The notes beneath the pieces are model-generated. The model did no database searches and was not told the origin of the DNA. It saw nothing but the letters and a program-made list of their open reading frames with translations. From IMG/VR virus record IMGVR_UViG_2537561979_000003: DNA of 64,000 nt; one strand, 5' to 3'. Of the stretch, positions 1 through 41,639 are shown one piece after another (the first letter of the stretch is position 1; the number at the start of each line of letters is the position of its first letter). This stretch comes from a virus (taxonomy: Duplodnaviria > Heunggongvirae > Uroviricota > Caudoviricetes). The translations under genes and the position numbers were made by a program.

Positions 1-116
1 AGGCGCATTTCGCCCAGGGGATCACCATAATAAAATGCTGAGGCCTGGCCTTTGCGTAGTGCACGCATCACCTCAATACCTTTGATGGTGGCGTAAGCCG
101 TCTTCATGGATTTAAA
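1..116 (-). mobile_element. IS26 partial copy (internal fragment), truncated exactly where the complete IS26 begins
   Basis: Positions 1-116 are identical to 194-309 inside the adjacent IS26; the match ends at ggatttaaa, followed directly by the IS26 terminal repeat GGCACTGTTGCAAA. Confidence 0.85.
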
Positions 117-936
117 GGCACTGTTGCAAAGTTAGCGATGAGGCAGCCTTTTGTCTTATTCAAAGGCCTTACATTTCAAAAACTCTGCTTACCAGGCGCA
201 TTTCGCCCAGGGGATCACCATAATAAAATGCTGAGGCCTGGCCTTTGCGTAGTGCACGCATCACCTCAATACCTTTGATGGTGGCGTAAGCCGTCTTCAT
301 GGATTTAAATCCCAGCGTGGCGTCGATTATCCGTTTCAGTTTGCCATGATCGCATTCAATCACGTTGTTCCGGTACTTAATCTGTCGGTGTTCAACGTCA
401 GACGGGCACCGGCCTTCGCGTTTGAGCAGAGCAAGCGCGCGACCATAGGCGGGCGCTTTATCCGTGTTGATGAATCGCGGGATCTGCCACTTCTTCACGT
501 TGTTGAGGATTTTACCCAGAAACCGGTATGCAGCTTTGCTGTTACGACGGGAGGAGAGATAAAAATCGACAGTGCGGCCCCGGCTGTCGACGGCCCGGTA
601 CAGATACGCCCAGCGGCCATTGACCTTCACGTAGGTTTCATCCATGTGCCACGGGCAAAGATCGGAAGGGTTACGCCAGTACCAGCGCAGCCGTTTTTCC
701 ATTTCAGGCGCATAACGCTGAACCCAGCGGTAAATCGTGGAGTGATCGACATTCACTCCGCGTTCAGCCAGCATCTCCTGCAGCTCACGGTAACTGATGC
801 CGTATTTGCAGTACCAGCGTACGGCCCACAGAATGATGTCACGCTGAAAATGCCGGCCTTTGAATGGGTTCATGTGCAGCTCCATCAGCAAAAGGGGATG
901 ATAAGTTTATCACCACCGACTATTTGCAACAGTGCC
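117..936 (-). mobile_element. IS26 (IS6 family), complete 820-bp element
   Basis: 14-bp terminal inverted repeats GGCACTGTTGCAAA at 117-130 and TTTGCAACAGTGCC at 923-936; 820 bp; encodes recognisable Tnp26. Confidence 0.92.
169..873 (-). CDS. tnpA: IS26 transposase Tnp26 (DDE transposase, IS6 family), 234 aa
   Basis: Protein MNPFKGRHFQRDIILWAVRWYCKYGISYRELQEMLAERGVNVDHSTIYRWVQRYAPEMEKRL... matches Tnp26 from memory; the ORF track extends it 6 codons upstream. Confidence 0.92.
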   Translation of the reverse strand: MNPFKGRHFQRDIILWAVRWYCKYGISYRELQEMLAERGVNVDHSTIYRWVQRYAPEMEKRLRWYWRNPSDLCPWHMDETYVKVNGRWAYLYRAVDSRGRTVDFYLSSRRNSKAAYRFLGKILNNVKKWQIPRFINTDKAPAYGRALALLKREGRCPSDVEHRQIKYRNNVIECDHGKLKRIIDATLGFKSMKTAYATIKGIEVMRALRKGQASAFYYGDPLGEMRLVSRVFEM

Positions 937-1456
937 GCGTAACGCGCTGGAGTGCGCAGGATGTGAACTAATTTTTGAAGATAAAATCAGCGGAACGAAA
1001 TCAGCCAGACCGGGATTGAAAAAACTGATCAGAACGCTATCAGAAGGAGATACGCTGGTTGTCTGGAAGCTGGACAGACTGGGCAGAAGTATGAAACACC
1101 TGATCACGCTTATTGAGGAATTGCGGGAAAAAGGTGTTAATTTCCGTAGTCTGACAGACAGTATTGACACATCAACACCCATGGGGCGTTTCTTTTTTCA
1201 TGTCATGGGTGCTTTAGCAGAAATGGAACGTGAATTAATTGTTGAGAGAACACTGGCCGGACTGGCAGCTGCACGCGAACAGGGACGCATTGGCGGACGT
1301 CGCCCGAAGTTGACAAAAGAACAACATGAGCAAATAGCGAGGTTGATCGAAAATGGCTACAGCAGGAAACAGTTGGCAATTATTTACGATATCGGTGTAT
1401 CGACGATTTATCGTTATCATCCTGTAGAGAAGCGCCAAACTCAATCTGAGCTGTAA
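937..1456 (+). pseudogene. cin: cin DNA invertase (Hin/Gin/Cin serine recombinase) lacking its first ~19 codons, cut by IS26
   Basis: Translation NALECAGCELIFEDKISGTKSARPGLKK...DTLVVWKLDRLGRSM...SIDTSTPMGRFFFHVMGALAEMERELIVERT is a serine invertase body; the N-terminal catalytic-serine region is missing and the reading frame begins at the IS26 end. Confidence 0.8.
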
Positions 1457-1891
1457 TTCTAATGCCGCGTCGGTGTAATTTATCTTGATAGAATAGGTAC
1501 ATTTATCGCGCGGCACATCAATTCGATGTATCTAGCGCCTGCTGACCGCTAATGAAAACTGTTCTCGAAATGTTGTCCCTAGCCCGAGACTAGGGTATCA
1601 CCTCTGGAAAGCATACGCAGAACCTTTTTTAACCCAGGGTGCCCAGCCTTTTTGCTGCTCGCCTTATTCGCAAAAATTAGCTCACATCCTGCGCTTTCAA
1701 GTGCTTTTCACTGCATAGCTGTGTTTTGTTCATTTGTCTATATGCGTACATAGCCTATTAGCATATTTTCTGCCCACTATCGTTATTTATTGCAAGCTAC
1801 AGGTTTTAATTAACAAAACCAGTGTGTGTGGAAATCACAAAGTGCATACCGTTCTCAGATGTTGTTCAACTTACTGTTGTATAGGTAAAAA

Positions 1892-2155
1892 ATGACATTT
1901 TATGTACATATCGTGATGTTATCCCTTCTTGGTGGGGTGTATTCGTATTTGAGTGGGCTATGTGAAAACCGTTACGAGTCTTCATGCAAGAAATTGCTGG
2001 CCGAATGTATTTCCGCCGTACTTGCTGGCTTTATTGGCATGTATCTCGCGGAATATAAGGATATGAATGAAAGCCTTCAGAGCTGCATGGTTCTTATTTT
2101 CAGCGCCAATAGCAGGCTTATTATTGAAGGTTCCAAAAGTCGGTTGAATAGGTAA
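1892..2155 (+). CDS. small membrane protein, holin-like, uncharacterized
   Basis: 87-aa ORF with hydrophobic segments; AGGT 6 nt upstream of ATG; lies between cin and the dar-type operon. Confidence 0.35.
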   Translation: MTFYVHIVMLSLLGGVYSYLSGLCENRYESSCKKLLAECISAVLAGFIGMYLAEYKDMNESLQSCMVLIFSANSRLIIEGSKSRLNR

Positions 2156-2229
2156 GTCTCTTATGCAACATAACCGGTTGAGAAGTTACTTTGCATACCA
2201 TTACCTCCTGACAACGTAGGAGGGAACTT

Positions 2230-2559
2230 GTGCTTGACACACAGGAATTAGCTCCAGTTGCTATTGCGCTCCTGCTTTCAGTAATTGGTGGGATAGGCAC
2301 GTTCCTGATGGATGTCCGAGACGGTCGCCAGTCTGGCAATTTGTTGGGATTGGTTACGGAGATCTTTGTTGCAGTGACAGCTGGCGCGGTGGCGTACCTA
2401 TTGGGGCAACACGAGGGCTGGGAGTTATCAATTACGTACTTAATGGTAACGATAGCCAGCAATAACGGTCATGAGGTGATTTCAGGGATGAAACGAGTGA
2501 ATATCGATAGCATTCTGAATGTTCTTACAAGTTTGGTGAAAAAGGGAGGCGGGAAATGA
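2230..2559 (+). CDS. lydA: putative holin (LydA-like), GTG start
   Basis: 109-aa protein with 2-3 predicted transmembrane segments; strong SD GGAGGG 5 nt upstream of GTG; position upstream of the darA-like gene as in P1. Confidence 0.45.
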   Translation: MLDTQELAPVAIALLLSVIGGIGTFLMDVRDGRQSGNLLGLVTEIFVAVTAGAVAYLLGQHEGWELSITYLMVTIASNNGHEVISGMKRVNIDSILNVLTSLVKKGGGK

Positions 2560-2999
2560 TTGGCTGGGGTGTATGCGTTCTTGCGTTAGCCTTAGCCGAT
2601 CGCTATTTGCTAAAACGCAAGGACATCACGCATTTAGAACTTGGTGATGTGGAAATTAAACCGGGTTTCATCCGGGTGCCGTTCAAATACCGGTCTAAAT
2701 TCCCGTTTTTGCGCGGCGCAACGGTCAGATATTGGATCCGCGATGTTCAGAAGCCAACGACAGTGATTGAAGGCGAACAACGTTGTCTGACGTCGGCTGA
2801 ACAGGGCGAAAACAGTGAATGGTTGTACATACCCACTGAATATATGGGTAAAGGAGAACGGCTGTGGCATTTCAACGTCATGGTTACGCATGGCGACTCG
2901 TTCATTAACCCGTTGTATCGGATTTTCCCTGTTACTCAGAAAATCCGCAGAAGTTACGTAATAAATCTCGCACAGGATGTGTCAGATGACGAAAAATAA
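2556..2999 (+). CDS. lydB: putative lysis regulator / antiholin (LydB-like)
   Basis: 147-aa ORF whose start overlaps the upstream stop (ATGA); synteny only. Confidence 0.4.
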   Translation: MIGWGVCVLALALADRYLLKRKDITHLELGDVEIKPGFIRVPFKYRSKFPFLRGATVRYWIRDVQKPTTVIEGEQRCLTSAEQGENSEWLYIPTEYMGKGERLWHFNVMVTHGDSFINPLYRIFPVTQKIRRSYVINLAQDVSDDEK

Positions 3000-3588
3000 G
3001 TATGCAACGGTCGATTTTGACCAGGTTAATGAAAAGGGGCTGAAATCCCTTATCGCGGCGATCAATAAAACCGGGGTTACGGTAATTGAGGTTGACTCCA
3101 GCAACCGCGCAACAACGAAAGATGGCGTTAAAGTTAAAACCGCAAAGCTGGTTCTTAACGACGGACAAATTCTTGCCATACAGGTAAACGATACTGGCGA
3201 TATATCGTCTGTGAAACTGAATGGAAAAGCTATTCCTAACGCTCAGTCGCCGGATATCAAGACGCTTGGTACCGTCATGGGACAGGCGGCCCGCAAAAAC
3301 TCCGCAAAATTCCAGAAATCACTGATCGCCAAAGCGAAGCGTGTTGCCAATCCGGTAGACAAGAAACCGGCAGTTAAATCCAACTTTCAGCGCCTGCAAG
3401 AAGCAAAACAGCGGAATGCTCAGGTGGTTGCCGCTTATAAGTCCGCGCAGAATTCGGTGTCTTTCAATCAACAGCAGATCACTGATTTGCGGGCGAAGCT
3501 GGATAAGGAGACGGGCCGACTCAATAACGAAAAGGCACGGAATGGCGAACTCAAACGTCGTCTTAAGCAACTGAAAGCAGGAAATTAA
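2986..3588 (+). CDS. hdf: Hdf-like protein (shares a KNSAKFQ motif with the DarA-like protein)
   Basis: ARKNSAKFQKSLIAKAK here versus AEKNSAKFQRAQKKKK in the downstream 639-aa protein; start moved to the ATG at 2986, which has an AGGA SD. Confidence 0.5.
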   Translation: MTKNKYATVDFDQVNEKGLKSLIAAINKTGVTVIEVDSSNRATTKDGVKVKTAKLVLNDGQILAIQVNDTGDISSVKLNGKAIPNAQSPDIKTLGTVMGQAARKNSAKFQKSLIAKAKRVANPVDKKPAVKSNFQRLQEAKQRNAQVVAAYKSAQNSVSFNQQQITDLRAKLDKETGRLNNEKARNGELKRRLKQLKAGN

Positions 3589-3589
3589 C

Positions 3590-5509
3590 ATGGAACAGTT
3601 CAATATCAATAAAGGGGTGACGATCAAGCCTGGGCTTGACGTGCTTCCCCCGCCAGTGACTGATGATGAATATCGCGCATTAATGGCCGGTGAGGACCGC
3701 TATCTGATGACGGAATCCAACACCCTGGAGGAAATCGAGGCTACGTTCTTCTATGACACGCCGATCCACTGGTGTGCTACGGATTTACTGGAGGCGATTA
3801 GTTCTACTCGTTTGCAGTTACACCGGACCATGCAGGCATTTGTCCGGGCATTGAACCAGAAGCTGAATGGTACCGGAATCTCTGCGGGGAGTGATAAAAC
3901 GGGGGATGTGGCCCAGAGCGGCGCGCGCGCGATCGGCGGTGCTGAAATTGGCCGGGCACGGAACGTTAACGGGCTGCCGGTCCTGCCAGCCATTATTCCG
4001 CTCAGTGATGGTCAGACTATCAGCATTCTGTTTCATAGCCCGACAGCGGAAAACCGGATCACCAATAGCGATACGCTGGTTGCTTTCCAGTTCTTACTGA
4101 ATAAAAAAGACGTTACTCACACCGTTGCTCCGATGAGTGGACGTGATATGACGCTGGCGCAGGTCACCATGAAACTTGCCAACCTTGCAGAGAAAAACTC
4201 GGCAAAATTCCAGCGTGCGCAGAAGAAGAAAAAAGCCCTGGTTGATGAAATAACCCAACTACAGGCTGACAGTGACCAGAAAGAGGATGCCATGAGCGAC
4301 CTCGCGGATCAGGTGGCAGCGGTAGAAGGGCAGAAGGTAGATCTGGAGCAGAAAATTAACGCTGTTGCATCGGAAGCGGATTCTCTTTATGAAGAGAATG
4401 AGCGTTTGCAGACGGAGATTGATCAGCTCAATCGCACAGGTGGGCGCGATACCATTGATCCAGCGGGGATGACTGGTGGGCACTCGCGCGCGCTGACGGA
4501 TCGCCTTGCCAGTATCAAAAATCGTATGCATATGAACGGGGAAGTGACGCTCAGTAATGGAGCATCAATGAAGCAATTCATTGAGGACGGCGAAGGGTAT
4601 ATCCAGTTAACCGATTCGGATGGCAGCGTGTACATGATCAAGGCTAAATCCATACAGGGTGTGGACATGGCAGATGCGATCGGCAAGCTGTTTAAAGCCT
4701 ATAAAGCGGGTAATGTATCGGAATATCTGGTCCAACCAGAAGAACATAAACCGGAAAACGTCGAACCTGAACCAGCGGAGGATACCGGTAGCTCTTCGCC
4801 TGAACCAGAAGTCTCTGTAGGTGCATATCGATATGCCTTGCAAATGCGTCCGGCGGCCCCTGGCGCAATACCTGAAGGCAACAAAGCAATTCTGCCGCGC
4901 CCTGATGAAGGTGACCCGTATTATGAATATGCACGCTACGGCATTGTTACTTACGATACCCCGCTTTCTGATCAGCAAATGAGTGAGTACGACCTGAAGT
5001 TATTGCCTCGCGAGGATTCTTTCGACTTCCTGGCGAAGACACTTACTAATGGTCCGTTTGGCAAATATGCACAAAAAGCTCTGGAGCTGGCCACCAGCTC
5101 ACCAGACGAGTTCCGCGTAATGCTGAAAACTCAGTTTCAAAAAACTTTCCCCAATATTGCGTTTCCTGGGGGCGCTGGCATCGAGAAAATGGTGCAGAGC
5201 ATGATCAATGCATTGCAGGCCGAAGTCGGTGAGATTACTCAACCAGAACCGGTCCCGGCACAGCCTGATGAAACGGTTAGCGAAGCAGATGCAGAGGCTA
5301 ATAAAGCCATTGAATATCTCAATAGCGTGATGGATATGCAAAGCACTGACATGGCGGAGATCCGTAACGCCCGGGGCAATGTCCGGGAAGCGATTGTTGC
5401 CCTTCAGGCTGCCGGACGTTTTGAGGAAAACGAAGAGCTGGTTAACGGTGCTGCTCGCCACCTGGCTGATCTGCTGGTAGCAATCCAGAAAGCGGGGGTA
5501 GCGGCATGA
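3590..5509 (+). CDS. darA: DarA-like capsid internal / antirestriction protein, 639 aa
   Basis: Size and position match P1 DarA (about 70 kDa); AGGA SD 7 nt upstream; coiled-coil-rich. Confidence 0.65.
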   Translation: MEQFNINKGVTIKPGLDVLPPPVTDDEYRALMAGEDRYLMTESNTLEEIEATFFYDTPIHWCATDLLEAISSTRLQLHRTMQAFVRALNQKLNGTGISAGSDKTGDVAQSGARAIGGAEIGRARNVNGLPVLPAIIPLSDGQTISILFHSPTAENRITNSDTLVAFQFLLNKKDVTHTVAPMSGRDMTLAQVTMKLANLAEKNSAKFQRAQKKKKALVDEITQLQADSDQKEDAMSDLADQVAAVEGQKVDLEQKINAVASEADSLYEENERLQTEIDQLNRTGGRDTIDPAGMTGGHSRALTDRLASIKNRMHMNGEVTLSNGASMKQFIEDGEGYIQLTDSDGSVYMIKAKSIQGVDMADAIGKLFKAYKAGNVSEYLVQPEEHKPENVEPEPAEDTGSSSPEPEVSVGAYRYALQMRPAAPGAIPEGNKAILPRPDEGDPYYEYARYGIVTYDTPLSDQQMSEYDLKLLPREDSFDFLAKTLTNGPFGKYAQKALELATSSPDEFRVMLKTQFQKTFPNIAFPGGAGIEKMVQSMINALQAEVGEITQPEPVPAQPDETVSEADAEANKAIEYLNSVMDMQSTDMAEIRNARGNVREAIVALQAAGRFEENEELVNGAARHLADLLVAIQKAGVAA

Positions 5510-5871
5510 CACTATCAGCTATTGAGTTAATGGACCTCAGCGATAAGTTGGATGCTCTGATGTCCAAAGCGGCTACCGCGAGTGGCATGGAGTTGCTGGA
5601 TATCAGCGATGAAATTGACCAGATCATGCAACAGATGGGGTACGGCGCGTCCGGCGGCAGTAGTGGCGAGGAAAAACAACCTTCGGTACATGATGGTGTG
5701 CCAAAACTGGTTGCTGATTTCCTGGCTGATAAATTCGTCGATCAGAGCACTGATGCATTTATCGGTACGTTACAGGACTTGAGTCAATATGTTGGCACAT
5801 ACATCGACCTGGACCAGGTTAAACAGCACACGGCGGCATGGATAGCCGCCAACATTAAAGAGGCAGCGTGA
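5506..5871 (+). CDS. ddrA: DdrA-like small protein
   Basis: 121-aa ORF overlapping the darA stop; synteny. Confidence 0.5.
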   Translation: MTLSAIELMDLSDKLDALMSKAATASGMELLDISDEIDQIMQQMGYGASGGSSGEEKQPSVHDGVPKLVADFLADKFVDQSTDAFIGTLQDLSQYVGTYIDLDQVKQHTAAWIAANIKEAA

Positions 5872-7218
5872 CATCCTCCACGCCCCGAAGGGCGTGGATT
5901 CCTGCTACGTTCAGGCTGTCGCCTGAATCATTTCGGTGGGTTCCTGCTTCAACGGGCGGCCTGACTGCACCATCCCTCCACAGGCAAGTACGGCGTGCCC
6001 CGCCGCTAAAATGTTACGAGCGCCGTTTACATCGGCGTTCGCTGTATATCCACATACCTGGCATCTGAATTTACTTTGTGACAGGCGATTTTCTTTCGCT
6101 GTATGACCACAGCACGCGCAACGCTGGCTTGTGTACGCTGGCGGAACAGCAAGCACCTGACCGCCACGCCAGAGCTGCTTGTACTCAAGCTGGCGGCGCA
6201 TTTCATACCAGCCCTGATCCAGTATCGAACGGTTTAAACCTGATTTTGCCCGGACATTGCGACCCGGATGACTTATCGTTCCCGCCGCTGACTTTGACAT
6301 GTATTTAACCTTCAAATCCTCAATGACAATCATTGCGTGGTTTTTGCTGACGGTCGTTGTGACTTTGTGAAGGTAGTCCCTGCGGATATTTGCGATACGG
6401 GAATGCAGTCGCTGTATTTTGCGTTTCTGCTTCTGCCAGTTGTTGCTGAATTTGACCTTGCGGCTTAACTGTCGCTGAAGTCTCGCCAGCTTCTTCTGGT
6501 TTTTCTGAAAACTATTTACAGGTTCAAAGACTGTGCCATCTGACAGCGTGGCGAGTTTAGCCACGCCAGCATCCAGTCCGACCATTGATGCTGAAGGGTG
6601 AACAGGAGTGGATACCTCTCTTTCTGTCTGAATACTGATGTACCACTTACCGCAGGACTGGCTGACAGTAACATTTTTCACAATACCCGTGACCTGACGG
6701 CTATTCCGGTAGCGCATCCAGCCAAGTTTCGGCAGAAAAATACGGCTGTTTTCCTGATCGAGCTTAACACCCTGCGGGTAGCGGAATGCATCATTCTGTC
6801 CCCGCTTTTTGAATCGGGGAAAAGCTGCCCGATTCTGGAAGAAGTTTTTGTAAGCCCGCTCAAGGTCTTTCAGTGACTGTTGCAATGGCTGTGAGGGAGA
6901 ATCTTTAAGCCATTCGGTTTCAGTGTCTTTTTTCCACTCAACCAACCAGGAAGCCATTTTCGTGTAAGGGATGTATTTTTTACCGGCCTCATGATTCTCA
7001 TTCTGAAGCGCCAGAGCACGGTTGAAAACGAAACGACAAGCTCCGGCAAAGCGCCTCATTTGACGCTCCTGTTGACCATCTGGTTTTAACCGGAATTTGA
7101 ATGACACCTGTTGTTTCATGTCACTATTTTAAGCAAAAATAGCCGGGAGGAAAACTGTGCCTTATATCCCCACTATGAGGAGCGTAGGGGGCGGCACATT
7201 GGATAAGGCGTAACAGGG
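5872..7218 (-). mobile_element. IS200/IS605-family tnpB-only insertion element (boundaries approximate)
   Basis: Fills the exact gap between the ddrA-like stop (5871) and ddrB-like start (7219); GC-rich hairpin ccacgccc-cgaa-gggcgtgg at 5878-5897 just 3' of tnpB. Confidence 0.5.
5911..7119 (-). CDS. tnpB: TnpB (OrfB), RuvC-like nuclease with C-terminal zinc ribbon
   Basis: 402 aa; conserved blocks ...[17 protein letters not shown]... (RuvC-I Asp) and ...[37 protein letters not shown]... (zinc ribbon plus RuvC-III). Confidence 0.85.
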
Positions 7219-10206
7219 ATGAGCTTAAGCGATCAGGTGGTAATGGCCACCAGCATAGAAACGCTGATCGAGCTGCTAAAGAACCTGCCCGATTATGGGC
7301 GGGTTTCGTATGTGGTGACAGCGAAGGGAGACGAGGTAAAAACAGCGTTTGATATCGTCGATGCCTCAGCTATTTTGGTATCCAATACTCTGGATGGGAA
7401 AATTAATCCTGACTATCCCCAGGAACTTCAGCCGCGCGACCGGACCCGCGCATCCAGCCTTCTTCAGGTTAACCAGATATCCAAAGATTTGCGGCCTGCT
7501 CAGCTTACCGATTCCGGATTATCCAGCCATGGCGCACCGATAATTGGTGAGGACAATGCAGTTGAGTCAGGTAATGGACGTACCATGGGGATCATTAAAG
7601 CCTATCAGGACGGTAATGCGGATCGGTATCGGGAGTACCTGATTGAACATGCGACCGAATTCGGCATACGTACTGAAAAGGTTGAATCAATGACGGCTCC
7701 GGTACTGGTGCGCCGCCGGTTAACGAAGGTTGACCGCGTTCAGTTTGCCAAGGACTCAAATATTTCTGATCTTCAGGAAATGGCAGCCAGTGAAAAGGCT
7801 TTTGTTGATGCCGACAGCATAACACCGGCGATGATGGCGCTGTTTAATCCGTCAGAAAGCGGAGATCTGCTTAGCCGCAGTAATGACGCGTTTATTCGCG
7901 GATTTATGACGCAAGTTGGTGCCACACAGGCGGCTGGCCTTGTAACTGAAGATGGGCGACCAACACGGCAACTTGTAGACCGTATACAAAACGCGATCTT
8001 TGCCAAGGCATATAAGGATGCGCGCCTGGTAAGGATGGTTGCAGAAGAACCTGATCCGGATATGCGTAATGTTCTGACGGCGCTTAATGCGGCAGCCAAT
8101 GATTTTGTCCAGATGCAGGCTTTATCAGGAGAAGCGCACAAGCAGGCTGTGACAACTATTGTTGATGGCATTGAGACAGCGGATAGCCTCGATAAAAAGG
8201 CGCTGGCGGCATTGAAAGATGCGGTAGACCTGGTAAGGCAATCGAAGGAGTCAGGCCAGCATATTACCGATGTTATTGCTCAGGGGGATATGTTCAGCGA
8301 AATGGCCCCGGAAGTGAAAGCACTCGCGTTGTTCATCGTCGCGAATAACCGTAGCGCGAAGCGTATGGCCACCGCCTTTAAGTTGATGGCTCAACGTATC
8401 AATGATGAGTTACAGCACCAGGGCCAGGCGCTGGGGGATATGTTTGGCGGCGGCGATGTGTCGTTACAGGATATCCTTCGCCAGGTATCTCAGGAACTGG
8501 AAAACGAAGGTATGCAAGGGATATCCGGCGGTCTTTTCGAGTCAGCTTCCGGCGGTAGTTACAACGGTGTTGCTCCATATACCAGTTTGCTATTACATCG
8601 AGCATCCGGCATCAAAGACATTATTCATCTGATCAGGCTGCTTTCCCGTAAAGATCCCCAGGATGAACAGCTTGTACAAGTGCTTGCGCATTTTGTTCGA
8701 ATGCCTGTTGCCGACGTGAAAAAATGGTGCCGATTATTCGGTATCAGCAATTCGTTACTTCGCGGCTTGTTAAATCACGCATCCTGCCTTGGGCGCGATG
8801 GCTTTGACGAGATAGCGCAGGCGATAAAAAACGGAGATATGCCACCAGCTATTGACTGGTTTTCCATTCGCCCAACCAGGGTGAAAGCATTCCTTAGCGC
8901 GGCGCATTCGGCATCACCATTGGCAGAAATGGTTCAGAGGTTGTCGCTCATATTCACAGACCATACTGCGTTGGGTGATCTGACTCTGGACGAGATGAAA
9001 GAAGCCTCCATTCAGTGGGCCGATCAACAAAATGAGGTTAACTCAGACTTCTTGCCAGCATTCAGGAAGGCCGTTAGTAAAGCGGATGATGCCCGTGGAA
9101 TTCTGAAGGCATTTAAGGCATTGCAAAGTCGGGTTAATAAACATGTCGGTGATATCGATGGGGTAACGGCGGAAGGCAGGGATATCCTTAAAGAGCACGG
9201 CATAACGCCAGAGTTTATTGATGAGATCAGGACGGATATGCAGCGTGAGGTCGTATCGTCCCTGCAAATTGTAGCCAGAGCGTTGGCGGATGCTAATCCG
9301 AAGAGTGCGGCCATTGTTAACCGGGTTATTGGTGATATTGAAGCATCGGAGGGCATGGGGGCGCTGAAACTCTTCCTTTCGCGAGCGTTTAATCCTAACG
9401 GCAATATTCTCCCTGGCATTATTGGTGAGGCTAAAAGGTATGTCAGTGAAGAAGAACTTGAGCAGCTTGACCAACTACTTAAGCGATTCTCATATAACCC
9501 GCAGACACGCTGGCAAATGAATCAGCGAAGTATGGGTTCGGTCCACGAGAAAGTGTTATCTGCCATGAACAGTGCGATCGCAAACTCATCCGTATCTGAA
9601 GAAAAAGCTCTTGAGTGGGCCGACTCTTTTATCACGGAAGAAGTGGAAGAAGCCCGCGCTGGACAGAATGGTGGGATAGACCTGCGCAAGGAAATGGCTG
9701 ATATTTATCGCCTGACCGGCGGTAAAATTTCGACCTTATCAAAGGTGGTTCACCACCAGGGAAGGGCATATGCAAATCTTAATGGTGTTGTTGCTGTCAA
9801 TTTGAACGATGAAAATGCAAGTGCACTGTGGCACGAGCTGGGTCATCATCTTGAGTACAGTAACCCTGGTTTGTTAGAGAAAGCCCGGTCATTCCTGAAG
9901 GCCAATGTTGAAGGGGATAAGCCATCTTTCGTTAATATCGGTGGGCGTGGCAAGCCTGAATGGTGCTTCAGATCTCGATTGAGTAATATTTATATGGCGA
10001 AGGTATACCCGCCAGCCTCAGTAAGTAACACCGGGAAAATTCGGCAGAAATCACCGACTATTTCCAAAACGTCAGCAACGGAAGTATTCTCTATGGCTCT
10101 TCAGTTGTATCATGACAAAGAGGCCGCTGCCGCATCACTGATGAATGGTGACGGATTGCTGGAACTGTTATTAGGTGTGGCAAAGGAGCTAAATAATGCA
10201 GATTAA
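7219..10206 (+). CDS. ddrB: DdrB-like large protein, 995 aa
   Basis: Large ORF immediately after the ddrA-like gene (interrupted only by the tnpB element); synteny and size. Confidence 0.5.
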   Translation: MSLSDQVVMATSIETLIELLKNLPDYGRVSYVVTAKGDEVKTAFDIVDASAILVSNTLDGKINPDYPQELQPRDRTRASSLLQVNQISKDLRPAQLTDSGLSSHGAPIIGEDNAVESGNGRTMGIIKAYQDGNADRYREYLIEHATEFGIRTEKVESMTAPVLVRRRLTKVDRVQFAKDSNISDLQEMAASEKAFVDADSITPAMMALFNPSESGDLLSRSNDAFIRGFMTQVGATQAAGLVTEDGRPTRQLVDRIQNAIFAKAYKDARLVRMVAEEPDPDMRNVLTALNAAANDFVQMQALSGEAHKQAVTTIVDGIETADSLDKKALAALKDAVDLVRQSKESGQHITDVIAQGDMFSEMAPEVKALALFIVANNRSAKRMATAFKLMAQRINDELQHQGQALGDMFGGGDVSLQDILRQVSQELENEGMQGISGGLFESASGGSYNGVAPYTSLLLHRASGIKDIIHLIRLLSRKDPQDEQLVQVLAHFVRMPVADVKKWCRLFGISNSLLRGLLNHASCLGRDGFDEIAQAIKNGDMPPAIDWFSIRPTRVKAFLSAAHSASPLAEMVQRLSLIFTDHTALGDLTLDEMKEASIQWADQQNEVNSDFLPAFRKAVSKADDARGILKAFKALQSRVNKHVGDIDGVTAEGRDILKEHGITPEFIDEIRTDMQREVVSSLQIVARALADANPKSAAIVNRVIGDIEASEGMGALKLFLSRAFNPNGNILPGIIGEAKRYVSEEELEQLDQLLKRFSYNPQTRWQMNQRSMGSVHEKVLSAMNSAIANSSVSEEKALEWADSFITEEVEEARAGQNGGIDLRKEMADIYRLTGGKISTLSKVVHHQGRAYANLNGVVAVNLNDENASALWHELGHHLEYSNPGLLEKARSFLKANVEGDKPSFVNIGGRGKPEWCFRSRLSNIYMAKVYPPASVSNTGKIRQKSPTISKTSATEVFSMALQLYHDKEAAAASLMNGDGLLELLLGVAKELNNAD

Positions 10207-10504
10207 AATCGCAGCGCCATTAGGTGGAGATGCCATTATCGAATTTGATGATAATGAAGAAGTTTCCGGGCGTTTAAGCATTATCTCCGGTGACATTACC
10301 GAGGACATGATCGCTGAAGCCATAGCTGGGGCAAATCCCAATAGCTATATGGGATTCGTTAACACCCTTGATGCTCCCGCAAGTGATGTTCTCCGAACGC
10401 TGCATCTTTACGCTGGCTGGTTTGTTGATTGGCCAGCAGTAGATGGTGGCGATGAGGACGACGACGATGATTTTGGTGATCATGTAGACCAGATCGTATA
10501 TTGA
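10196..10504 (+). CDS. hypothetical acidic protein (C-terminal DEDDDDDFGD)
   Basis: 102-aa ORF overlapping the end of the 995-aa gene; followed by a terminator. Confidence 0.4.
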   Translation: MQIKIAAPLGGDAIIEFDDNEEVSGRLSIISGDITEDMIAEAIAGANPNSYMGFVNTLDAPASDVLRTLHLYAGWFVDWPAVDGGDEDDDDDFGDHVDQIVY

Positions 10505-10507
10505 AGA

Positions 10508-10536
10508 AATCCCGCCACTCGGCGGGATTTTTTTTA
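10508..10536. terminator. rho-independent terminator (bidirectional candidate)
   Basis: aatcccgcc-actc-ggcgggatt hairpin followed by a T7 run; an A-run precedes it, giving the same architecture on the other strand. Confidence 0.55.
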
Positions 10537-11316
10537 ATCGCTTTCCACTTCTTCCGTGGTGTTTTCTTGCAGTTCTGTTAATGCAGCACGACATAGGTTC
10601 CGGGCATTGGCTATAGCCACACTTTTGACTTCATCCGTCATCGTGCAGGTAATGTACTGATCGAGTTCTTCAGCGCGGATGATGCTTTTGCCAATCAGAA
10701 ACTGTATTTGCCAGAGCAGATCGGCATCCATAATCAGAATTTCTGCCGGGCCTTCAGGGCCAGCCGGGAAGGAAACATAAGACTGTTTGCCCAGGCCGAC
10801 AACTCGACAACTTGCTTCAAGAATTGCGCGCTTGAGGTCTGACTTTATAACGGAAACAGGTTGATTTTCACCAGTGATTACGCCGTTGACATGGAAAGGC
10901 ATGTAGCTTGAAATACGCTCCACTTTCCACACGCCAGCAAGCGATCCTTCATGCAGCACAATGGGGGTAACCGCGAGTTTCATCTCACCATATAGCTGCT
11001 GGCAGATAGCTGGATTGCTGAATACATCTAAAGGCTCACATTCAAACAGCGGCGCAATCTGCATGAGGTCCATCATGGTCATCCCTGGGGTACGAGCAGT
11101 AATGAATCTGCGCATACCAGTATCCATTGCGCTCCAGATTGCTACACCATGCTTTTTGCTCACTTCTTCAGTAAAGCCAAGGTGGCACATGATGGTTTTT
11201 TCGATAGCCAGATCAGAGATCGAAACCTTTTCGCCAGGCACACCATCATTATTGATGGTCACTTCGACACTCTGACCATTACGCAGGCGGTATTGAATTG
11301 CTTTAGTATTTTCCAC
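10534..11316 (-). CDS. hypothetical protein
   Basis: 260-aa ORF, no recognisable motif. Confidence 0.5.
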   Translation of the reverse strand: MENTKAIQYRLRNGQSVEVTINNDGVPGEKVSISDLAIEKTIMCHLGFTEEVSKKHGVAIWSAMDTGMRRFITARTPGMTMMDLMQIAPLFECEPLDVFSNPAICQQLYGEMKLAVTPIVLHEGSLAGVWKVERISSYMPFHVNGVITGENQPVSVIKSDLKRAILEASCRVVGLGKQSYVSFPAGPEGPAEILIMDADLLWQIQFLIGKSIIRAEELDQYITCTMTDEVKSVAIANARNLCRAALTELQENTTEEVESD

Positions 11317-11322
11317 GTTAAA

Positions 11323-12000
11323 TCACTCCACTACAAACCAGTCACATGCCAGTAAGTCGCCTACAGAAGGAACCCACGGAACAACTACACCTTGTGCATT
11401 TTTTAAGGCGAAATAAGCACCATACGGAACGAGGTCGCCGGGGAAATATCCCTTAATGGCTTCCATTCGTGCCGGGTACTGTCCTTCAGGAACCAGCCAG
11501 CAGAATTGGTTTTCGCCGTTCCACCCGCGTCGAGCAACTTTCTTGCCATCCTTCAGCCACATCAGCGCGTCAGAAAAGTCGGCTGCTTCAAGGTCGATTT
11601 CTTCTTGTGTGGTAATGATGCCACTGGCAGCAATAGTTACGTCCCTGGCTGTAATGAATGTCACCCCATTGTGACCTTCAATACTGAGCGATACCCCATT
11701 TTCGAAGAAGTCGTTAGTCCGACTAAAGCCTTCTTCAAATGTTTTTTCTGGTGAATAGGACAGAGATCCGTCCTCATAAGCGACCAGATATCCGCCAATT
11801 TCTGGTCGGTGTTTTTGCAAAAACATTTTATCAACATGGACTTTTACCCCTTCTGGCTCAACGACTTCGATGTTGCAAAAAAGGACCACATCCATTAGGG
11901 CGATAATTTCGATATCTTTGATTTTTGAGGCGCGAACTGTTTTATGGCTTTTGTATTTTGGAAGTGCCGTCAAAAGCTCTTTCGTTGTCATGTTATTCAT
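11323..12000 (-). CDS. hypothetical protein; start moved to the internal ATG
   Basis: AGAGGA SD 6 nt upstream of the ATG for MNNMTTKELL; the longer track ORF lacks an SD. Confidence 0.5.
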   Translation of the reverse strand: MNNMTTKELLTALPKYKSHKTVRASKIKDIEIIALMDVVLFCNIEVVEPEGVKVHVDKMFLQKHRPEIGGYLVAYEDGSLSYSPEKTFEEGFSRTNDFFENGVSLSIEGHNGVTFITARDVTIAASGIITTQEEIDLEAADFSDALMWLKDGKKVARRGWNGENQFCWLVPEGQYPARMEAIKGYFPGDLVPYGAYFALKNAQGVVVPWVPSVGDLLACDWFVVE

Positions 12001-12197
12001 AGTCTTTCCTCTGCTTAAAACCTGATGTATTGCGCCTTCAGGTGGGGCAGGAATGTTTTCCCACCAGCGAAAGCAATATCTCGGGGTGTTCTTTTCGTGA
12101 AAAGCGCGTGCCATTGCCAACTTTGGCGTTTGTTTGCGAGTTCGTGCTTTTGTCGGCGTCTGGACCACCGCTTTTCTTTCAGTCGTTTTTTACACAT

Positions 12198-12686
12198 TCA
12201 AAACGGAATATCGTCGTCAAAGTCCATTGGAGGTTCGTTATTGGCGTTGCTCTGAGGTTTACCGCCACCACTGTATTGCTGGTGGTTTTGAGGTTGGTTT
12301 GATTGCCCCCAGCCATTTGAGGACTGTGAATCGTCACGGCGAGCGCCGATCATTTGCATGGTGCCGCCCTGGCTGACGATAATTTCCGTCGTGTAACGTT
12401 CTACACCGGCGTCATCTGTCCACTTACGGGTTTTAAGTTTCCCTTCGATGTAGACCTGAGAACCTTTTCGTAAATACTCACTCGCAATTTCAGCAAGTTT
12501 TCCGAACAAAACGACTTTATGCCATTCTGTTTGCTCTTTCTGTTGGCCCGTTTGCTTGTCCCGCCATGATTCATTCGTTGCGATGCTGAGTCTTCCGACC
12601 GCGCCGCCATTTGGTATATACCTGATCTCCGGGTCTTGCCCCAGGGTACCAATCAGGATGACTTTGTTTACACCGCGTTGTGCCAC
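12198..12686 (-). CDS. ssb: single-stranded DNA-binding protein
   Basis: [68 protein letters not shown]... OB fold; Gly/Gln-rich tail ending DDDIPF. Confidence 0.93.
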
Positions 12687-12705
12687 TTATCTTACCTAAT
12701 AAAAT

Positions 12706-12722
12706 AAATAAATTAGAGCAAT
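12706..12722 (-). promoter_or_regulatory. C1 operator-like site upstream of ssb
   Basis: Minus strand reads ATTGCTCTAATTTATTT, 14/17 to the consensus ATTGCTCTAATAAATTT. Confidence 0.55.
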
Positions 12723-12855
12723 AATGTATATCTTTGAAACGTAGCTAACAAGTGATTTGCATTATCCTGTGCCTTCTAAAGGGATCGAGTCAGTCGGTAT
12801 TGGCTGTGAATGGGTGTTTGTCCTGGAGCGTAAAAAATTCGCTTATGAGGTCTTT

Positions 12856-13413
12856 ATGAAGGGAAAAACAGCCGCAGGAGGCGGTGCAATTTGCGCTATC
12901 GCGGTGATGATTACCATCGTGATGGGTAATGGCAATGTGCGAACCAACCAGGCGGGGCTTGAGCTTATCGGAAACGCTGAAGGTTGCCGACGTGATCCAT
13001 ACAAGTGCCCGGCGGGTGTATGGACTGACGGGATTGGTAATACACACGGGGTAACGCCTGGCGTGCGAAAAACCGACCAACAAATCGCCGCTGATTGGGA
13101 AAAGAATATCCTGATCGCTGAACGCTGTATTAACCAGCACTTCCGGGGCAAAGACATGCCCGATAATGCCTTCAGCGCAATGACAAGCGCGGCATTCAAT
13201 ATGGGATGCAATAGTTTACGGACCTACTACAGCAAAGCGCGAGGCATGCGAGTCGAAACGTCCATCCACAAGTGGGCGCAGAAAGGGGAATGGGTGAATA
13301 TGTGTAACCATCTCCCTGATTTCGTGAACAGTAACGGCGTCCCCCTGCCCGGGTTAAAGATTCGCCGTGAAGAAGAACGCCAGCTTTGCCTGACGGGGCT
13401 TGTCAATGAATAA
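12856..13413 (+). CDS. lyz: SAR endolysin (T4-lysozyme-like), 185 aa
   Basis: MKGKTAAGGGAICAIAVMITIVMGNGNVRTNQAGLELIGNAEGCRRDPYKCPAGVWTDGIGNTHGV: N-terminal signal-anchor-release segment then lysozyme catalytic region; the track ORF is extended upstream. Confidence 0.85.
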   Translation: MKGKTAAGGGAICAIAVMITIVMGNGNVRTNQAGLELIGNAEGCRRDPYKCPAGVWTDGIGNTHGVTPGVRKTDQQIAADWEKNILIAERCINQHFRGKDMPDNAFSAMTSAAFNMGCNSLRTYYSKARGMRVETSIHKWAQKGEWVNMCNHLPDFVNSNGVPLPGLKIRREEERQLCLTGLVNE

Positions 13414-36446: not shown

Positions 36447-36761
36447 CATACATTAAAGAAGCACCTTTGGTGCAAACGCGTTATGTACATCAACCACCGC
36501 TGATGATTTTTGTGCGCTTTGCTACTATTCATCACCGCGGGGTCAGCGTAACCTCGTTGCCAATCAGTTAATAAGGAATTAGCTATGCCTAATCGCATTC
36601 CTCTCGATCCTGTATTGCCCAAAAATTTTGACTGCACTCCTAACGAGAAACGCTCTAAAGCTCAGCTGGACGCCTAGTGGGACCATCCATATGGGGTTAC
36701 ACAACCTGACGGGAAAATTGTAGTTTATTGTCTGAATGGTGGGGCGTGGGACCGTCCATCC

Positions 36762-37169
36762 GTGCTTTGTTTGGCAGATAACTATGATGAAGCCTGTGAA
36801 CTTGCCGAAAGACAGCAGGCAAGCTGGGTAAAAACACGGTCTGAACCGACATTCATGTTTTCAAAAGAACCGCCATTTATACTGGCGAGGATGCCGCAGC
36901 GACCGGATCATCAACAAGAAATTGTTGCTGAATTTTCCTCAAGGGATGAGATGAATCTCTTCTCATTAAAGCAGGAAGAAAGGGATCGCGTCGAAGTGTC
37001 TCCAACTCTCGACCACAACCGGATGAACCTGGCCCAGCTCGCCTGGTACAGCAAAGAATTAGAGATGTCTATTGCCCGGCTTGAAAACGAAAAAGCCGCT
37101 ATCCAAGTCCAGCACGAAGTAGTTCTGAACCGGATTAGAGAAATGCAAAACGATAACAGGGGATTTTGA
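36762..37169 (+). CDS. hypothetical protein with C-terminal coiled coil; start unresolved (no in-frame ATG with SD)
   Basis: Open frame extends upstream to 36678; a 30-codon ORF with good SD (36585-36677) sits in another frame just upstream. Confidence 0.35.
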   Translation: MLCLADNYDEACELAERQQASWVKTRSEPTFMFSKEPPFILARMPQRPDHQQEIVAEFSSRDEMNLFSLKQEERDRVEVSPTLDHNRMNLAQLAWYSKELEMSIARLENEKAAIQVQHEVVLNRIREMQNDNRGF

Positions 37170-37526
37170 ATGGCTAAAATCGAGTACCATCGCGATCGCG
37201 GTAATTACCTGGAAATATACGATCATGAATCTCTTAACGATATCAACGATGCGTTATATGAATACTGTGAAAAAACGAGCATCACAGATGCACCTGATGC
37301 ATTTGTCGAGCTGCCGGTATATCTCCGCGACATCTATGCAATACGAACACCGCCCGTATCGGTGATTCACATTGGCTATGTCCGCCTGTCCATCGAAGAA
37401 GATGAAGATCGTTATATCGTGCGCCACTATACATTGGACAGAAAAGAACTTCCTAATGAATGGAACATGAGTAATTTCTACAACGGTGAATATGGCTTAA
37501 AATCCGCTAATAATTTACGGTCATAA
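37170..37526 (+). CDS. hypothetical protein, translationally coupled to the upstream ORF
   Basis: TGAATG stop-start junction; 118 aa; no recognisable motif. Confidence 0.4.
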   Translation: MAKIEYHRDRGNYLEIYDHESLNDINDALYEYCEKTSITDAPDAFVELPVYLRDIYAIRTPPVSVIHIGYVRLSIEEDEDRYIVRHYTLDRKELPNEWNMSNFYNGEYGLKSANNLRS

Positions 37527-38371
37527 TCTATACAGGCATGTATAACAACAACGAGTCTATTAGCTGTCAACAACGTTATTTCCTCAAATAAGAAAAAGCA
37601 GAAAACAAATTATTTAAGGTCACAAATTGTGGCCTTGATGGAGGAGGGAGGCTTATTGGCTATGGCTAAAAATCAAATTAGACACTTCATGTTGCTGTAG
37701 CTCATCAAGATCCGAGGCCACAAAACCTTTTCCGAAAAACTTCACAAGTAACTCACTAGCCGCATCATTGTCACCTATTACACGAAAGTCATACGGCAAC
37801 GTCGCAAGTTGACGATGTAATCCTGCTGAGAAAGTCGAATCTAACAGCGCCCAGAATTCCCACCGCAGGATAATACTCGCCTCTTAATACTGTATATATG
37901 TTGTTACGATATGTTTTTCTGTCTCTAAAAAAAGATGTTTGAAGGGGATAAAAATATACAATTCCAACAAACGTTATTTTTAACAATTTTTTTCTTTGCG
38001 TTGACTTTCCCGGACACCTTGTCTGACCGAAGGTGCGCGAAAGCCACTTTTTCCTTCCTGAGTTATCCACAAAGTTATGCACTTGCAAGAGGGCCATTTT
38101 CTACATATTGTGGTGGCTAACAGATGAAATGAATGTAGATTAATTGAAGATAAGGAGAAAATTTGAGATGCAATCATGACGTTAATAGATAGGGTCTGCA
38201 TTACAGACCCCACCCGCATCAAGGAATTAGCCGTTCCCTGATGTTTTTCCGAAAACATGTGCCGTAAGCTCACGTTAACGACTTTCATTCACCGAATCCA
38301 ACTATATAGGGGTTGGGTTTCTACGTCAACGTGAGCAAGTGCACCTTTACATTTGACAAGGAACCACCTGA

Positions 38372-38947: not shown

Positions 38948-39825
38948 ACTTCACCCTCGCTTGTATCACCAGCGTCCACCAACGACAATAAAGCCCTGGC
39001 CATCTTATGAACCAACAGTGCATCAATAATGCCAAGCGTATGCCCCGGCTTAATGTTTAATGCTGCCTCAAGATGACACCTTTCCAGACCGCTTTTCTCG
39101 GCTTGTTTATGATGATATGGCGTAATAACGTCGCCCAAAACACGGCTAATTCTTTCTCGTAATTGCTGGGTGCCAGCACACTTGATCGCTGTATCGTGGA
39201 GACGGTTAACCAGTTCGCGATAAACATGCGGCTTAATGCGGATACGTTCACCGGTGACGCCCTTTCCTGGCGTAGGCACCGAACTATCCGGAATATCCGG
39301 ATAGTTGCCAGCCAGTCTACGCAAAACAGCCTTAATTGCATCAATACGGTCATCATCAACTTTTTCTACAATATTGGAATTTAAATACTTCGAAGCCTTG
39401 CTATGCCAATCGCTGGTTTTAGGGTCTTGTCCATCCATCAAACGCCAAGCTTCAGCGATTAACTCATAGCCAGTAACAGTGGCTTCCTGCGCATCACCAA
39501 TCAGTTGTGTGATCTCTCTTTCAAGCATGCTTAGAGCGTTAGGCATTGGTTTTTCTTCCGGTACTACTGGAACGGGGGGAGCGGCGTAGACCTCAATAAT
39601 TCCATTATCAATAGGCCATTCTCCATCCTTGAGGTAGTCACTTGTGCCGTCAACTTGCTGTTCTGCAATGTGGAATGCACCTATTGGTTTTGCTTCCAGT
39701 GATGCCAGAGCAATTCGTGCCAGTTCTTCCGCTTCTTCTGCTGGCAGTACAACGTTGCTACCAGGTCCGTATGTTTCGCGCCACTGCTTGATTGTCAGTA
39801 GTCGCTCTTTGGTAATAGTGATCAT
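38944..39825 (-). CDS. hypothetical protein
   Basis: 293-aa ORF overlapping its neighbours' stops and starts. Confidence 0.5.
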   Translation of the reverse strand: MITITKERLLTIKQWRETYGPGSNVVLPAEEAEELARIALASLEAKPIGAFHIAEQQVDGTSDYLKDGEWPIDNGIIEVYAAPPVPVVPEEKPMPNALSMLEREITQLIGDAQEATVTGYELIAEAWRLMDGQDPKTSDWHSKASKYLNSNIVEKVDDDRIDAIKAVLRRLAGNYPDIPDSSVPTPGKGVTGERIRIKPHVYRELVNRLHDTAIKCAGTQQLRERISRVLGDVITPYHHKQAEKSGLERCHLEAALNIKPGHTLGIIDALLVHKMARALLSLVDAGDTSEGEV

Positions 39826-40337
39826 GCCGCGTTTCCTTCTTTCTTATTAACAATTACACCGTCATATATTTCATTAAGGTGCCCTCTTAACTCCATGCGC
39901 CTTAATGCAGATAACATGTAATCGCATTCAACCTGCTTATTTCCAGTAAATGGCTTATCGTCAGGATTACCCCAACAGCAATTACCCTTGGGCCACCCAT
40001 GTACTTTCCGTACTCTTCCGTTAACAACGTGAAGTAATCCCCAGCCAGGAGGTAAATCCTCAATTGAAATAATTCCCGGCTCACTAATAAAGAATCGCCA
40101 GTCGCCCATGCCAAGTGAGGGATTTTTACGGAAACGCTTTTTTCTATCTGCCAACAAATCAGCACGAGAACACTTCGCCTCTATCAGGCATGATGCTGAA
40201 TTTCTGAATCCCATAGCATCTGGCTGTTCTCCGGTACTGGTTACAGCTATAAAGCGGTCATGAAAACAAACCTTGAACCCGTTGCGCTTAAGGAACTTGT
40301 ACGCAATCTGACAGAGTTCGCGGTGTGTTAACGCCAT
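39822..40337 (-). CDS. putative PD-(D/E)xK nuclease-fold protein
   Basis: Candidate motif ...QPDAMGF...CLIEAKCSRADLL...; AAGGAG SD upstream of MALTHREL. Confidence 0.4.
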   Translation of the reverse strand: MALTHRELCQIAYKFLKRNGFKVCFHDRFIAVTSTGEQPDAMGFRNSASCLIEAKCSRADLLADRKKRFRKNPSLGMGDWRFFISEPGIISIEDLPPGWGLLHVVNGRVRKVHGWPKGNCCWGNPDDKPFTGNKQVECDYMLSALRRMELRGHLNEIYDGVIVNKKEGNAA

Positions 40338-40338
40338 A

Positions 40339-40971
40339 TCACTCTCCTTTGATGCGAATGCCAGCGGCGCGGGGCACATTAACTTCCACGATGCGCACAG
40401 TTGGTTTGTACATCTCAATCGCAGTCAGCCAGTCAGCGCCAGTCATGCGCTTTTCTGCATCGCCATTAGTCCACTTAACCGGTACACCAATAGCCTTCAT
40501 CGCGATTTCTATTTCCCCGGCAATGGCGCTTTTTCCGCAACCAGTAAAACCAGATACAACGACCAGAACTTCACCTTTGGCTGGTTTTATTTCCCGCGCT
40601 TCCAGTTCTGCTATGCGCTTACTTCCATCCGAGATAACACCTTCGTAATACTCACGCTGCTCGTTGAGTTTTGATTTTGCTTCCTCAAGCTCAACTCTCA
40701 GCTTCCCTACCGTTAGAGCAATATCCTCGTTCTCCTGGTCACGGCGTTTGATGTATTGCTGGTTTCTTTCCCGTTCATCCAGTAGTGCCAGCACGGTTTC
40801 TGGTCCGGCCAGAAATTTGAAGGCGTTGAGCGCATCAATATCCACACCGTAATCTTTAAGTTCCTGTTCACTTAACAAATCATCATCAGCTGGCAACATT
40901 AACAGGCGTTCCATTGCTGGAATTGCACGTTCCGCCGCCTCACGCAGTGCCTGGTAATTAATTTCGCTCAC
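40339..40971 (-). CDS. hypothetical P-loop protein
   Basis: Walker A-like VVVSGFTGCGKSAIAGE in the C-terminal half; N-terminus MSEINYQALREAAERA shared with another ORF. Confidence 0.45.
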   Translation of the reverse strand: MSEINYQALREAAERAIPAMERLLMLPADDDLLSEQELKDYGVDIDALNAFKFLAGPETVLALLDERERNQQYIKRRDQENEDIALTVGKLRVELEEAKSKLNEQREYYEGVISDGSKRIAELEAREIKPAKGEVLVVVSGFTGCGKSAIAGEIEIAMKAIGVPVKWTNGDAEKRMTGADWLTAIEMYKPTVRIVEVNVPRAAGIRIKGE

Positions 40972-41639
40972 TGGTTGCCTCCTTTGCGAAGCTGTTCAGC
41001 AATACTTACGCATATCTCTGCGCCTCTAATCAGCCCCGGAACGTTCTTGTTTGGCCCAACTTCACCATCAACAAAATCAATCATCGCGTTACGAGCCATA
41101 TCCACCCCCTGCGCCCGAACTTCAGCCAGGAAAGCGTCGGTGGCTGGAATTTGCGGCATCCCTCCGTCTGTTGCGCAGATATACGCATCAGATATTTCAT
41201 CCTGCTGGCCATCAAACACGTAGCAACAGCCCCTGATAAACAGCTTCATTGAGGCATTCTCCACTGCCAGCGCCGTGCGATTACCATCCAGCTCTGCAAT
41301 ACGCTGTTTTGCGGCATCCAGTTCAATCGACAATTTTTCCAACTGCTCTTGATGCTTCTTGTATTCCTGATATGCGTGCCAAGACTGACCTTTGCGCACA
41401 CTATCAGTGATATCAGTAATCTGTTCTGGTGTTAGCGTGGCCAGTGGCTGTGATGGGAAAATAAGCACTTTCCCGGAATCCCAATCAAAACCAGCGTGAA
41501 TTGACTGAACCTCAACTGAAGGTGTTGAACCAATGCTGCCAGGCGAATGAACAACGATCGTTACATCCATATCGCGACGATGGCTGTGGTTGTTGGACAA
41601 AATACGATTCACCAACTCAGAAAATTTGGAAAATTTCAT
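40968..41639 (-). CDS. hypothetical protein (paralogue family A)
   Basis: Shares ...IPATDAFLAEVRAQG... and a C-terminal AEQLRKGGNQ-type tail with the ORF at 41923-42741. Confidence 0.45.
   Translation of the reverse strand: MKFSKFSELVNRILSNNHSHRRDMDVTIVVHSPGSIGSTPSVEVQSIHAGFDWDSGKVLIFPSQPLATLTPEQITDITDSVRKGQSWHAYQEYKKHQEQLEKLSIELDAAKQRIAELDGNRTALAVENASMKLFIRGCCYVFDGQQDEISDAYICATDGGMPQIPATDAFLAEVRAQGVDMARNAMIDFVDGEVGPNKNVPGLIRGAEICVSIAEQLRKGGNQ

Follow-up and report, generated by a model that had tools for sequence, protein, structure and literature searches.

In a 64,000-nucleotide (nt) stretch of viral DNA (the window; Caudoviricetes, IMG/VR record IMGVR_UViG_2537561979_000003, a P1-like phage-plasmid), the insertion sequence IS26 interrupts a Cin-family DNA invertase gene. 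We conclude with high confidence that this is a simple IS26 insertion accompanied by a target-site duplication, with no deletion and no cargo, and that the window starts at a gap in a draft scaffold; the conclusion holds for either of the two forms of the element that are weighed below. The mechanism that we propose is ordinary copy-in transposition. One IS26 has entered nt 54–61 of the invertase gene, duplicating 8 bp of target, GCGTAACG, without the loss of any sequence. Directly beyond IS26, just left of the window, lie the opening 61 nt of the gene, a cix-like recombination site and a variable tail-fibre open reading frame (ORF). The features at the start of the window are as follows.

1–116, minus strand: IS26 fragment, 116 of 116 nt identical to window 194–309.
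117–936, minus strand: complete IS26 of 820 bp, assigned by its terminal repeats, transposase and near-identity to annotated IS26.
937–944, no strand assigned: right copy of GCGTAACG, an 8-bp target-site duplication whose left copy precedes the other IS26 end.
937–1456, plus strand: 3′ part of the gene for a serine DNA invertase of the Cin family (codons 19–190 and the stop), matching positions 22–144 of the 145 of Pfam Resolvase, and HTH_7.

The window corresponds to positions 1555–65554 of the draft scaffold GL872122.1, and scaffold positions 1555–13010 are 100% identical to window 1–11456. An exact-protein look-up found the same truncated invertase ORF of 174 amino acids (aa) in four contigs, which are listed here with the locus handles used where contigs have to be told apart.

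L009: GL872122.1, NCBI scaffold, assembly GCA_000190975.1, 94,793 bp.
L010: ADKA01000031.1, NCBI contig, assembly GCA_002109875.1, 94,595 bp.
L011: Logan assembly of run SRR024118.
L012: Logan assembly of run SRR024333.

On the scaffold a run of 265 N occupies positions 1290–1554, and the next base is base 1 of the window; window position 1 is therefore the edge of a scaffold gap and no arbitrary cut in continuous sequence. The exact source sequence is absent from the plasmids of PLSDB, the phages of INPHARED and the complete Escherichia coli genomes, among which only relatives occur. The junction between IS26 and the invertase gene has no exact match in the GTDB representative genomes, IMG/VR or the JGI metagenomes, and a homology search with the Collar-domain protein returned cluster representatives only, none of them identical to the query.

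The identity of the element is clear, and the preliminary description of this DNA, made from the window alone, had named it correctly. The 14-bp terminal repeat of IS26, GGCACTGTTGCAAA, occurs exactly twice in the 64 kb, at 117–130 on the plus strand and at 923–936 on the minus strand (0.02 expected by chance), and the two copies bound an element of 820 bp; a terminal-repeat scan of the window found no further IS26 ends. Between them lies a transposase gene (169–873, minus strand) that encodes 234 aa with the Pfam domain DDE_Tnp_IS240 (E = 1e-48). The element differs by 1 nt from IS26 as annotated in complete plasmids and has counterparts of at least 99% identity in more than 4,500 plasmid records. 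Compared with WP_001067855.1, its transposase differs at a single residue, G184D, owing to 1 nt at window position 323. This allele is widespread, being present in 1,983 index blocks of the contig collection, and is too common to trace copies of the same strain; the IS26 transposase of plasmid pTHO-010-4 has Asn at codon 184.

Members of the IS6 family generally generate 8-bp repeats (PMC7986276), and a perfect 8-bp repeat encloses the element. The preliminary description had proposed a search for such duplications, and one is present: the right copy of GCGTAACG occupies window 937–944, and the left copy lies outside the window, at scaffold positions 1040–1047, directly before the IS26 end GGCACTGTTGCAAAG that starts at 1048. 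The left flank thus reads ...CAGAATTGCAGCGTAACG followed by GGCACTGTTGCAAAG, and the right flank ...TTTGCAACAGTGCC followed by GCGTAACGCGCTGG. The invertase start codon is found at scaffold position 987, from which 61 nt of coding sequence run up to IS26, and in the left junction this 5′ piece, ending in ...CAGCGTAACG, is joined to the IS26 end. When IS26 and one copy of the repeat are removed, scaffold 987–1047 and window 945–1456 combine into an ORF of 573 nt and 190 aa that starts MLIGYVRVSTNDQ. The match to Pfam Resolvase then extends over positions 2–144, and the reconstructed protein has an N-terminal Resolvase catalytic domain with the active-site serine and a C-terminal HTH_7 domain. 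Aligned with P1 Cin it is identical at 140 of 186 positions (75% aa identity), Ser9 lying within the motif YVRVSTN. Over 40 nt around the target this reconstruction shows no difference from the intact gene of plasmid p1_025985 (L014), in which GCGTAACG occurs once, at nt 54–61 of the invertase gene.

Two independent read-set assemblies bear on what lies between the flanks. Both Logan contigs read continuously from the tail-fibre ORF and the 5′ end of the invertase gene across a single 820-bp IS26 to the 3′ end of the gene, and they match the window at 100% or 99.97% identity (100% over 5,027 nt for L011). Neither the 193-bp IS26 fragment seen at the scaffold gap nor any cargo is present in these two contigs. 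They pass both IS26 ends and terminate at the multicopy IS1, which argues against a second IS26 with other neighbours and hence against cargo. Furthermore, the scaffold is of P1 size, and the P1-like gene order over the window and the remainder leaves no room for a large deletion or a resistance region.

The preliminary description had taken the arrangement as the signature of an IS26-mediated deletion or cointegrate and had thought cargo, possibly resistance genes, likely just left of the window. In this model an adjacent IS26 deletion or cointegrate took away the 5′ end of the invertase gene together with the invertible segment and brought an IS26-bounded resistance region up to the left side. 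The model is understandable from the window alone, where no duplication is visible (109–116 read GATTTAAA and 937–944 read GCGTAACG), and such events have occurred in this plasmid family, in pTHO-010-4 and p47538_2. Nevertheless the flanking sequence and the two Logan assemblies refute its central claims, and we regard it as very improbable. The scaffold carries the invertase 5′ end, the cix-like site and the tail-fibre ORF beyond IS26, the 8-bp duplication is perfect, the flanks are intact and the reconstructed empty site equals that of an intact relative; the Logan contigs hold a single IS26 from flank to flank and no cargo, and a scaffold of 94.8 kb is about the size of P1. Leftward extension of the sequence, which the same description had recommended, reveals neither resistance genes nor more IS26; the content of the four contigs that carry the truncated invertase is phage genes and IS1 only. 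The left flank holds the 5′ end of the cin-type gene and part of the C-segment, next to an assembly gap, which comes close to the situation that the preliminary description had itself named as pointing to an assembly artefact.

A target duplication would be equally expected if the gap concealed a compound (or pseudo-compound) transposon, that is, IS26, cargo and a second IS26 inside the duplication, the two copies having been collapsed in assembly and the cargo placed on another contig. The scaffolder also estimated a positive gap of 265 N instead of an overlap, in keeping with such a structure. With two copies, however, each end of IS26 would have two different neighbours, and the Logan contigs should break there; they cross IS26 and break at IS1. 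An NCBI contig likewise crosses the whole of IS26 from the 3′ flank, and none of the four contigs shows cargo joined to an IS26 end. There is very little chance that a compound transposon is present.

For the invertase, the insertion separates Ser9, with codons 1–20, from the rest of the protein. The ORF at 932–1456, which gene callers start at a GTG at 932 inside the IS26 end, yields 174 aa without the first 18 codons and without the catalytic Ser9, the retained part beginning at codon 19. The preliminary description had cin cut at about codon 19 with the catalytic serine removed; the break and the separation from Ser9 are correct, but the 5′ end is not lost and lies beyond IS26. Its statement that no cix site or C-segment is present is similarly true of the 64-kb window, in which no cix-like site occurs at four or fewer mismatches, but not of the plasmid. 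A cix-like site, TCCCAAACCAACGTTTAAGA, is found at scaffold 909–928, 59 bp upstream of the invertase gene; it has four mismatches from P1 cixL and is the same as the site that p1_025985 has in the corresponding place. A Collar-domain tail-fibre ORF occupies scaffold 411–956 on the minus strand. Scaffold 1–284 is an IS1 end bordering on the N-terminal portion of a gene for tail-fibre assembly (tfa), which is presumed to belong to the invertible segment, and the scaffold ends there; the IS1 in the tfa gene is further damage to that segment.

The recombinational enhancer of P1 is annotated at cin nt 19–90, and the homologous stretch here (58 of 72 nt identical) is split by IS26 after nt 61. The loss of linkage to Ser9 together with the split enhancer-like stretch would lock inversion of the tail-fibre genes unless another invertase acts in trans. 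Since both the invertase and the enhancer-like stretch are split, the tail-fibre switch is probably locked and inversion abolished; the preliminary description had also thought the host-range switch probably inactive, and the separation of the invertase from Ser9 is consistent with that view. Invertases of the Gin, Cin, Pin and Hin group can complement each other in trans. A relic of another invertase gene lies a short distance to the right.

1588–1764, minus strand: decayed P1-type cin 5′ remnant, 158 of 177 nt identical to P1 cin nt 1–177.

This remnant has stop codons at codons 9 and 19, retains the orientation of P1, divergent from lydC, and lies outside the IS26 event. It keeps an enhancer-like stretch that is identical to the annotated P1 enhancer at 62 of 72 nt. 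Homology to P1 DNA begins only at window 1588. A P1-type cin remnant beside an oppositely oriented invertase of functional type suggests that, in this lineage of plasmids, the module of invertase and tail-fibre genes has been exchanged or inverted.

Several observations weigh against the reading given above, either against its account of the switch or against a plain 820-bp element. The scaffold ends in the IS1 that cuts tfa, and neither the distal boundary of the invertible segment nor a second cix site was seen. Residual switching could occur through the second enhancer-like copy at window 1588–1764 together with invertases supplied in trans. The runs SRR024118 and SRR024333 could not be tied to the strains of the two NCBI assemblies. 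A junction of IS26 nt 193 to IS26 nt 1 (193/1) is present on both sides of the gap and in the second NCBI assembly, each contig being anchored in unique flanking sequence, and the identical junction is fixed in 12 complete Klebsiella pneumoniae plasmids of PLSDB, where it adjoins IS5075. Its presence in these plasmids implies a structure that is real somewhere in nature and no invention of an assembler.

The 193/1 junction, which reads ...GGATTTAAA followed directly by GGCACTG, falls at window 116/117. The preliminary description had noted, correctly, that window 1–116 repeats 194–309 (116 of 116 nt) and stops exactly where the full IS26 begins; it had, however, taken 194–309 for internal positions of IS26, whereas these are window coordinates. 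With the IS26 end at window 117 taken as nt 1, the fragment corresponds to nt 78–193 of the element, or to nt 628–743 in standard numbering, and belongs to a right-end fragment of 193 bp. Left of the gap, the contig leads from the invertase 5′ end into IS26 nt 1–193 and, across the junction, into nt 1–49; the contig right of the gap begins with nt 78–193 and continues across the junction through the full copy into the invertase 3′ end. The two contig ends overlap perfectly over 165 nt, and the gap of 265 N is consequently spurious or mis-sized. The gap size fits none of the candidate lengths of 820, 1,013 and 1,648 bp well.

These data allow a second form of the element, which is a variant of the simple insertion and not a departure from it: a real composite of 1,013 bp in the invertase gene, in which the 193-bp right-end fragment and the full IS26 stand in the same orientation and the gap is spurious. 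It would have either moved as a unit by means of its outermost inverted repeats or arisen in place by insertion of IS26 into IS26 and subsequent recombination. The junction at both contig ends, their perfect overlap, the second NCBI assembly that spans the same junction and the K. pneumoniae plasmids all argue for it, and precedent exists in IS15, an element of 1,648 bp in which one IS26-type element lies inside another; such nested elements are documented and can move as a unit (PMC7986276). On the other side, two k-mer-graph assemblies cross a single IS26, whereas a real tandem copy of 193 bp would branch and break the contigs. ADKA01000031.1 ends 38 nt past the junction in a tail with seven inserted bases that looks like a single read of poor quality. 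The junction was not found at full length among 5,426 complete E. coli genomes, and it has no exact match in the GTDB representative genomes, IMG/VR or the JGI metagenomes. The K. pneumoniae copies, moreover, have neither a common right flank nor a duplication that would prove movement as a unit.

L007 11875–12887 and L008 11875–12887: IS5075, the 193-bp IS26 end fragment and full IS26 in K. pneumoniae plasmids, for example pLAP2_020030 and pXH210-AMV.

The right neighbours of this structure differ between the two plasmids, with arsR in one and a cluster around an OsmC-family gene in the other. Having set these points side by side, we consider the composite a possibility to be taken seriously and give a modest preference to a plain 820-bp IS26, the junction then coming from few reads. 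The 193-bp fragment would accordingly be a small but genuine partial duplication, or else an artefact of assembly or a minor species. In either form of the element a single 8-bp duplication encloses it and both flanks are intact. We think it rather doubtful that the 1,013-bp derivative, with its three ends, is itself mobile. On that view it would have inserted into the invertase gene of the P1-like plasmid, duplicating 8 bp, and the same unit would have become fixed next to IS5075 in a K. pneumoniae plasmid lineage. If this were true, the mobile unit would be an IS15-like composite that has been moving between species since at least about 2009.

The simple insertion may also be placed among the relatives of the plasmid. 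Window 933–64000 is collinear with positions 30412–98062 of the record of Punavirus vB_EcoM-813R1, a P1-like phage of 99.6 kb, mostly at 95–99% identity; the collinearity runs through the invertase, the lyd and dar genes, the head genes, c1, pac and ban almost to repA, and the gene order is invertase, lydC, lydA, lydB, hdf, darA and onward. The same invertase is uninterrupted in dozens of P1-like plasmids of E. coli. In other members of this plasmid group the region has been reached by IS26 as well.

L001 15001–15820, L003 12002–12257, L004 12001–12820 and L002 15001–15820 (coordinates listed jointly): IS26 in pTHO-010-4, p211899A, p47538_2 and pCRKP-59-KPC.

In p47538_2 and pCRKP-59-KPC, IS26 lies in the neighbouring tail-fibre ORF, which is Sv′-like, and in p47538_2 an IS26-bounded dfrA17–aadA5–sul1–mph(A) region adjoins the same invertase. 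Plasmid p211899A, the closest backbone (99.8%), has an internally deleted IS26 and an invertase that is truncated deeper. At least four further, independent IS26 events have struck this invertase and tail-fibre region of P1-like plasmids, at different junctions.

Three further features of the window concern other parts of the phage-plasmid. A TnpB-type ORF of 402 aa (5911–7119, minus strand), with HTH_OrfB_IS605, OrfB_IS605 and Cas12f1-like TNB domains, lies between ddrA-like and ddrB-like genes; it occupies the same place in p211899A, p1_025985 and phage 813R1 and is absent from pTHO-010-4 and p47538_2. Eight matches with at most two mismatches to ATTGCTCTAATAAATTT, which we take to be the operator consensus of the P1 C1 repressor, occur at 12706, 27638, 30767, 43553, 49318, 59362, 59373 and 62895, where 0.01 would be expected, and account for a weak family of 40-nt repeats (D1). 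In the synteny map, window 11313–11997, 36488–37963, 39314–41922 and 56934–57649 have no counterpart in vB_EcoM-813R1.

All parts of this arrangement are of kinds already known: the insertion sequence is IS26, the invertase is of the Cin family and belongs to a P1-like plasmid, and the gap lies at a repeat in a draft assembly. Knowledge of IS26 and of Cin-type inversion is unchanged by it. Its interest lies mainly in a caution: a window that opens with part of a repeat, followed by a complete insertion sequence, looked like the scar of an IS26 deletion at the edge of a resistance region, when the structure is really a plain insertion next to the border of a scaffold gap. It also presents one more route by which a P1-like prophage-plasmid would lose its tail-fibre host-range switch, and, taken with pTHO-010-4, p211899A, p47538_2 and pCRKP-59-KPC, it marks the invertase and tail-fibre corner as a repeated target of IS26.

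Compared with simple insertions of the IS26 family, the element has the same length, perfect 14-bp repeats, a 234-aa DDE transposase and an 8-bp duplication, and nothing essential differs. Like IS15, it has an IS26-type terminus fused, in direct orientation, to a position inside IS26. Nesting of this kind should give two junctions, however, and 193/1 is the only one present here; at its other end the full copy adjoins the 3′ part of the invertase gene. A hypothetical nested structure gives an ORF of 207 aa, compared with 213 aa as quoted for IS15, and the data do not support equating the two elements. The insertion in pTHO-010-4 (NZ_AP022544.1) lies in the same gene and in the same IS26 orientation, the two sites being 5 bp apart. 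It differs in that no duplication is present (flanks CTTCATTC and TTACAAAG) and about 12.4 kb have been lost, a span that includes sit, the baseplate genes, R, S, the invertible segment and the start of the invertase gene, whereas the flanks in the window plasmid are intact.

The invertase itself belongs with P1 Cin and its C-segment, and with Mu Gin, Salmonella Hin, e14 Pin and p15B Min, in having the Resolvase and HTH_7 domains of the serine invertases. With the P1 C-segment the region shares a 20-bp cix-like site beside variable tail-fibre and tfa ORFs, and homology to the enhancer within the first 90 nt of the gene. In contrast to P1, the invertase is oriented oppositely relative to lydC–darA, its 5′ end instead of its 3′ end facing the invertible segment. 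It is also distinct from P1 cin, is split by IS26, from which no activity would be expected, and has a decayed cin remnant alongside.

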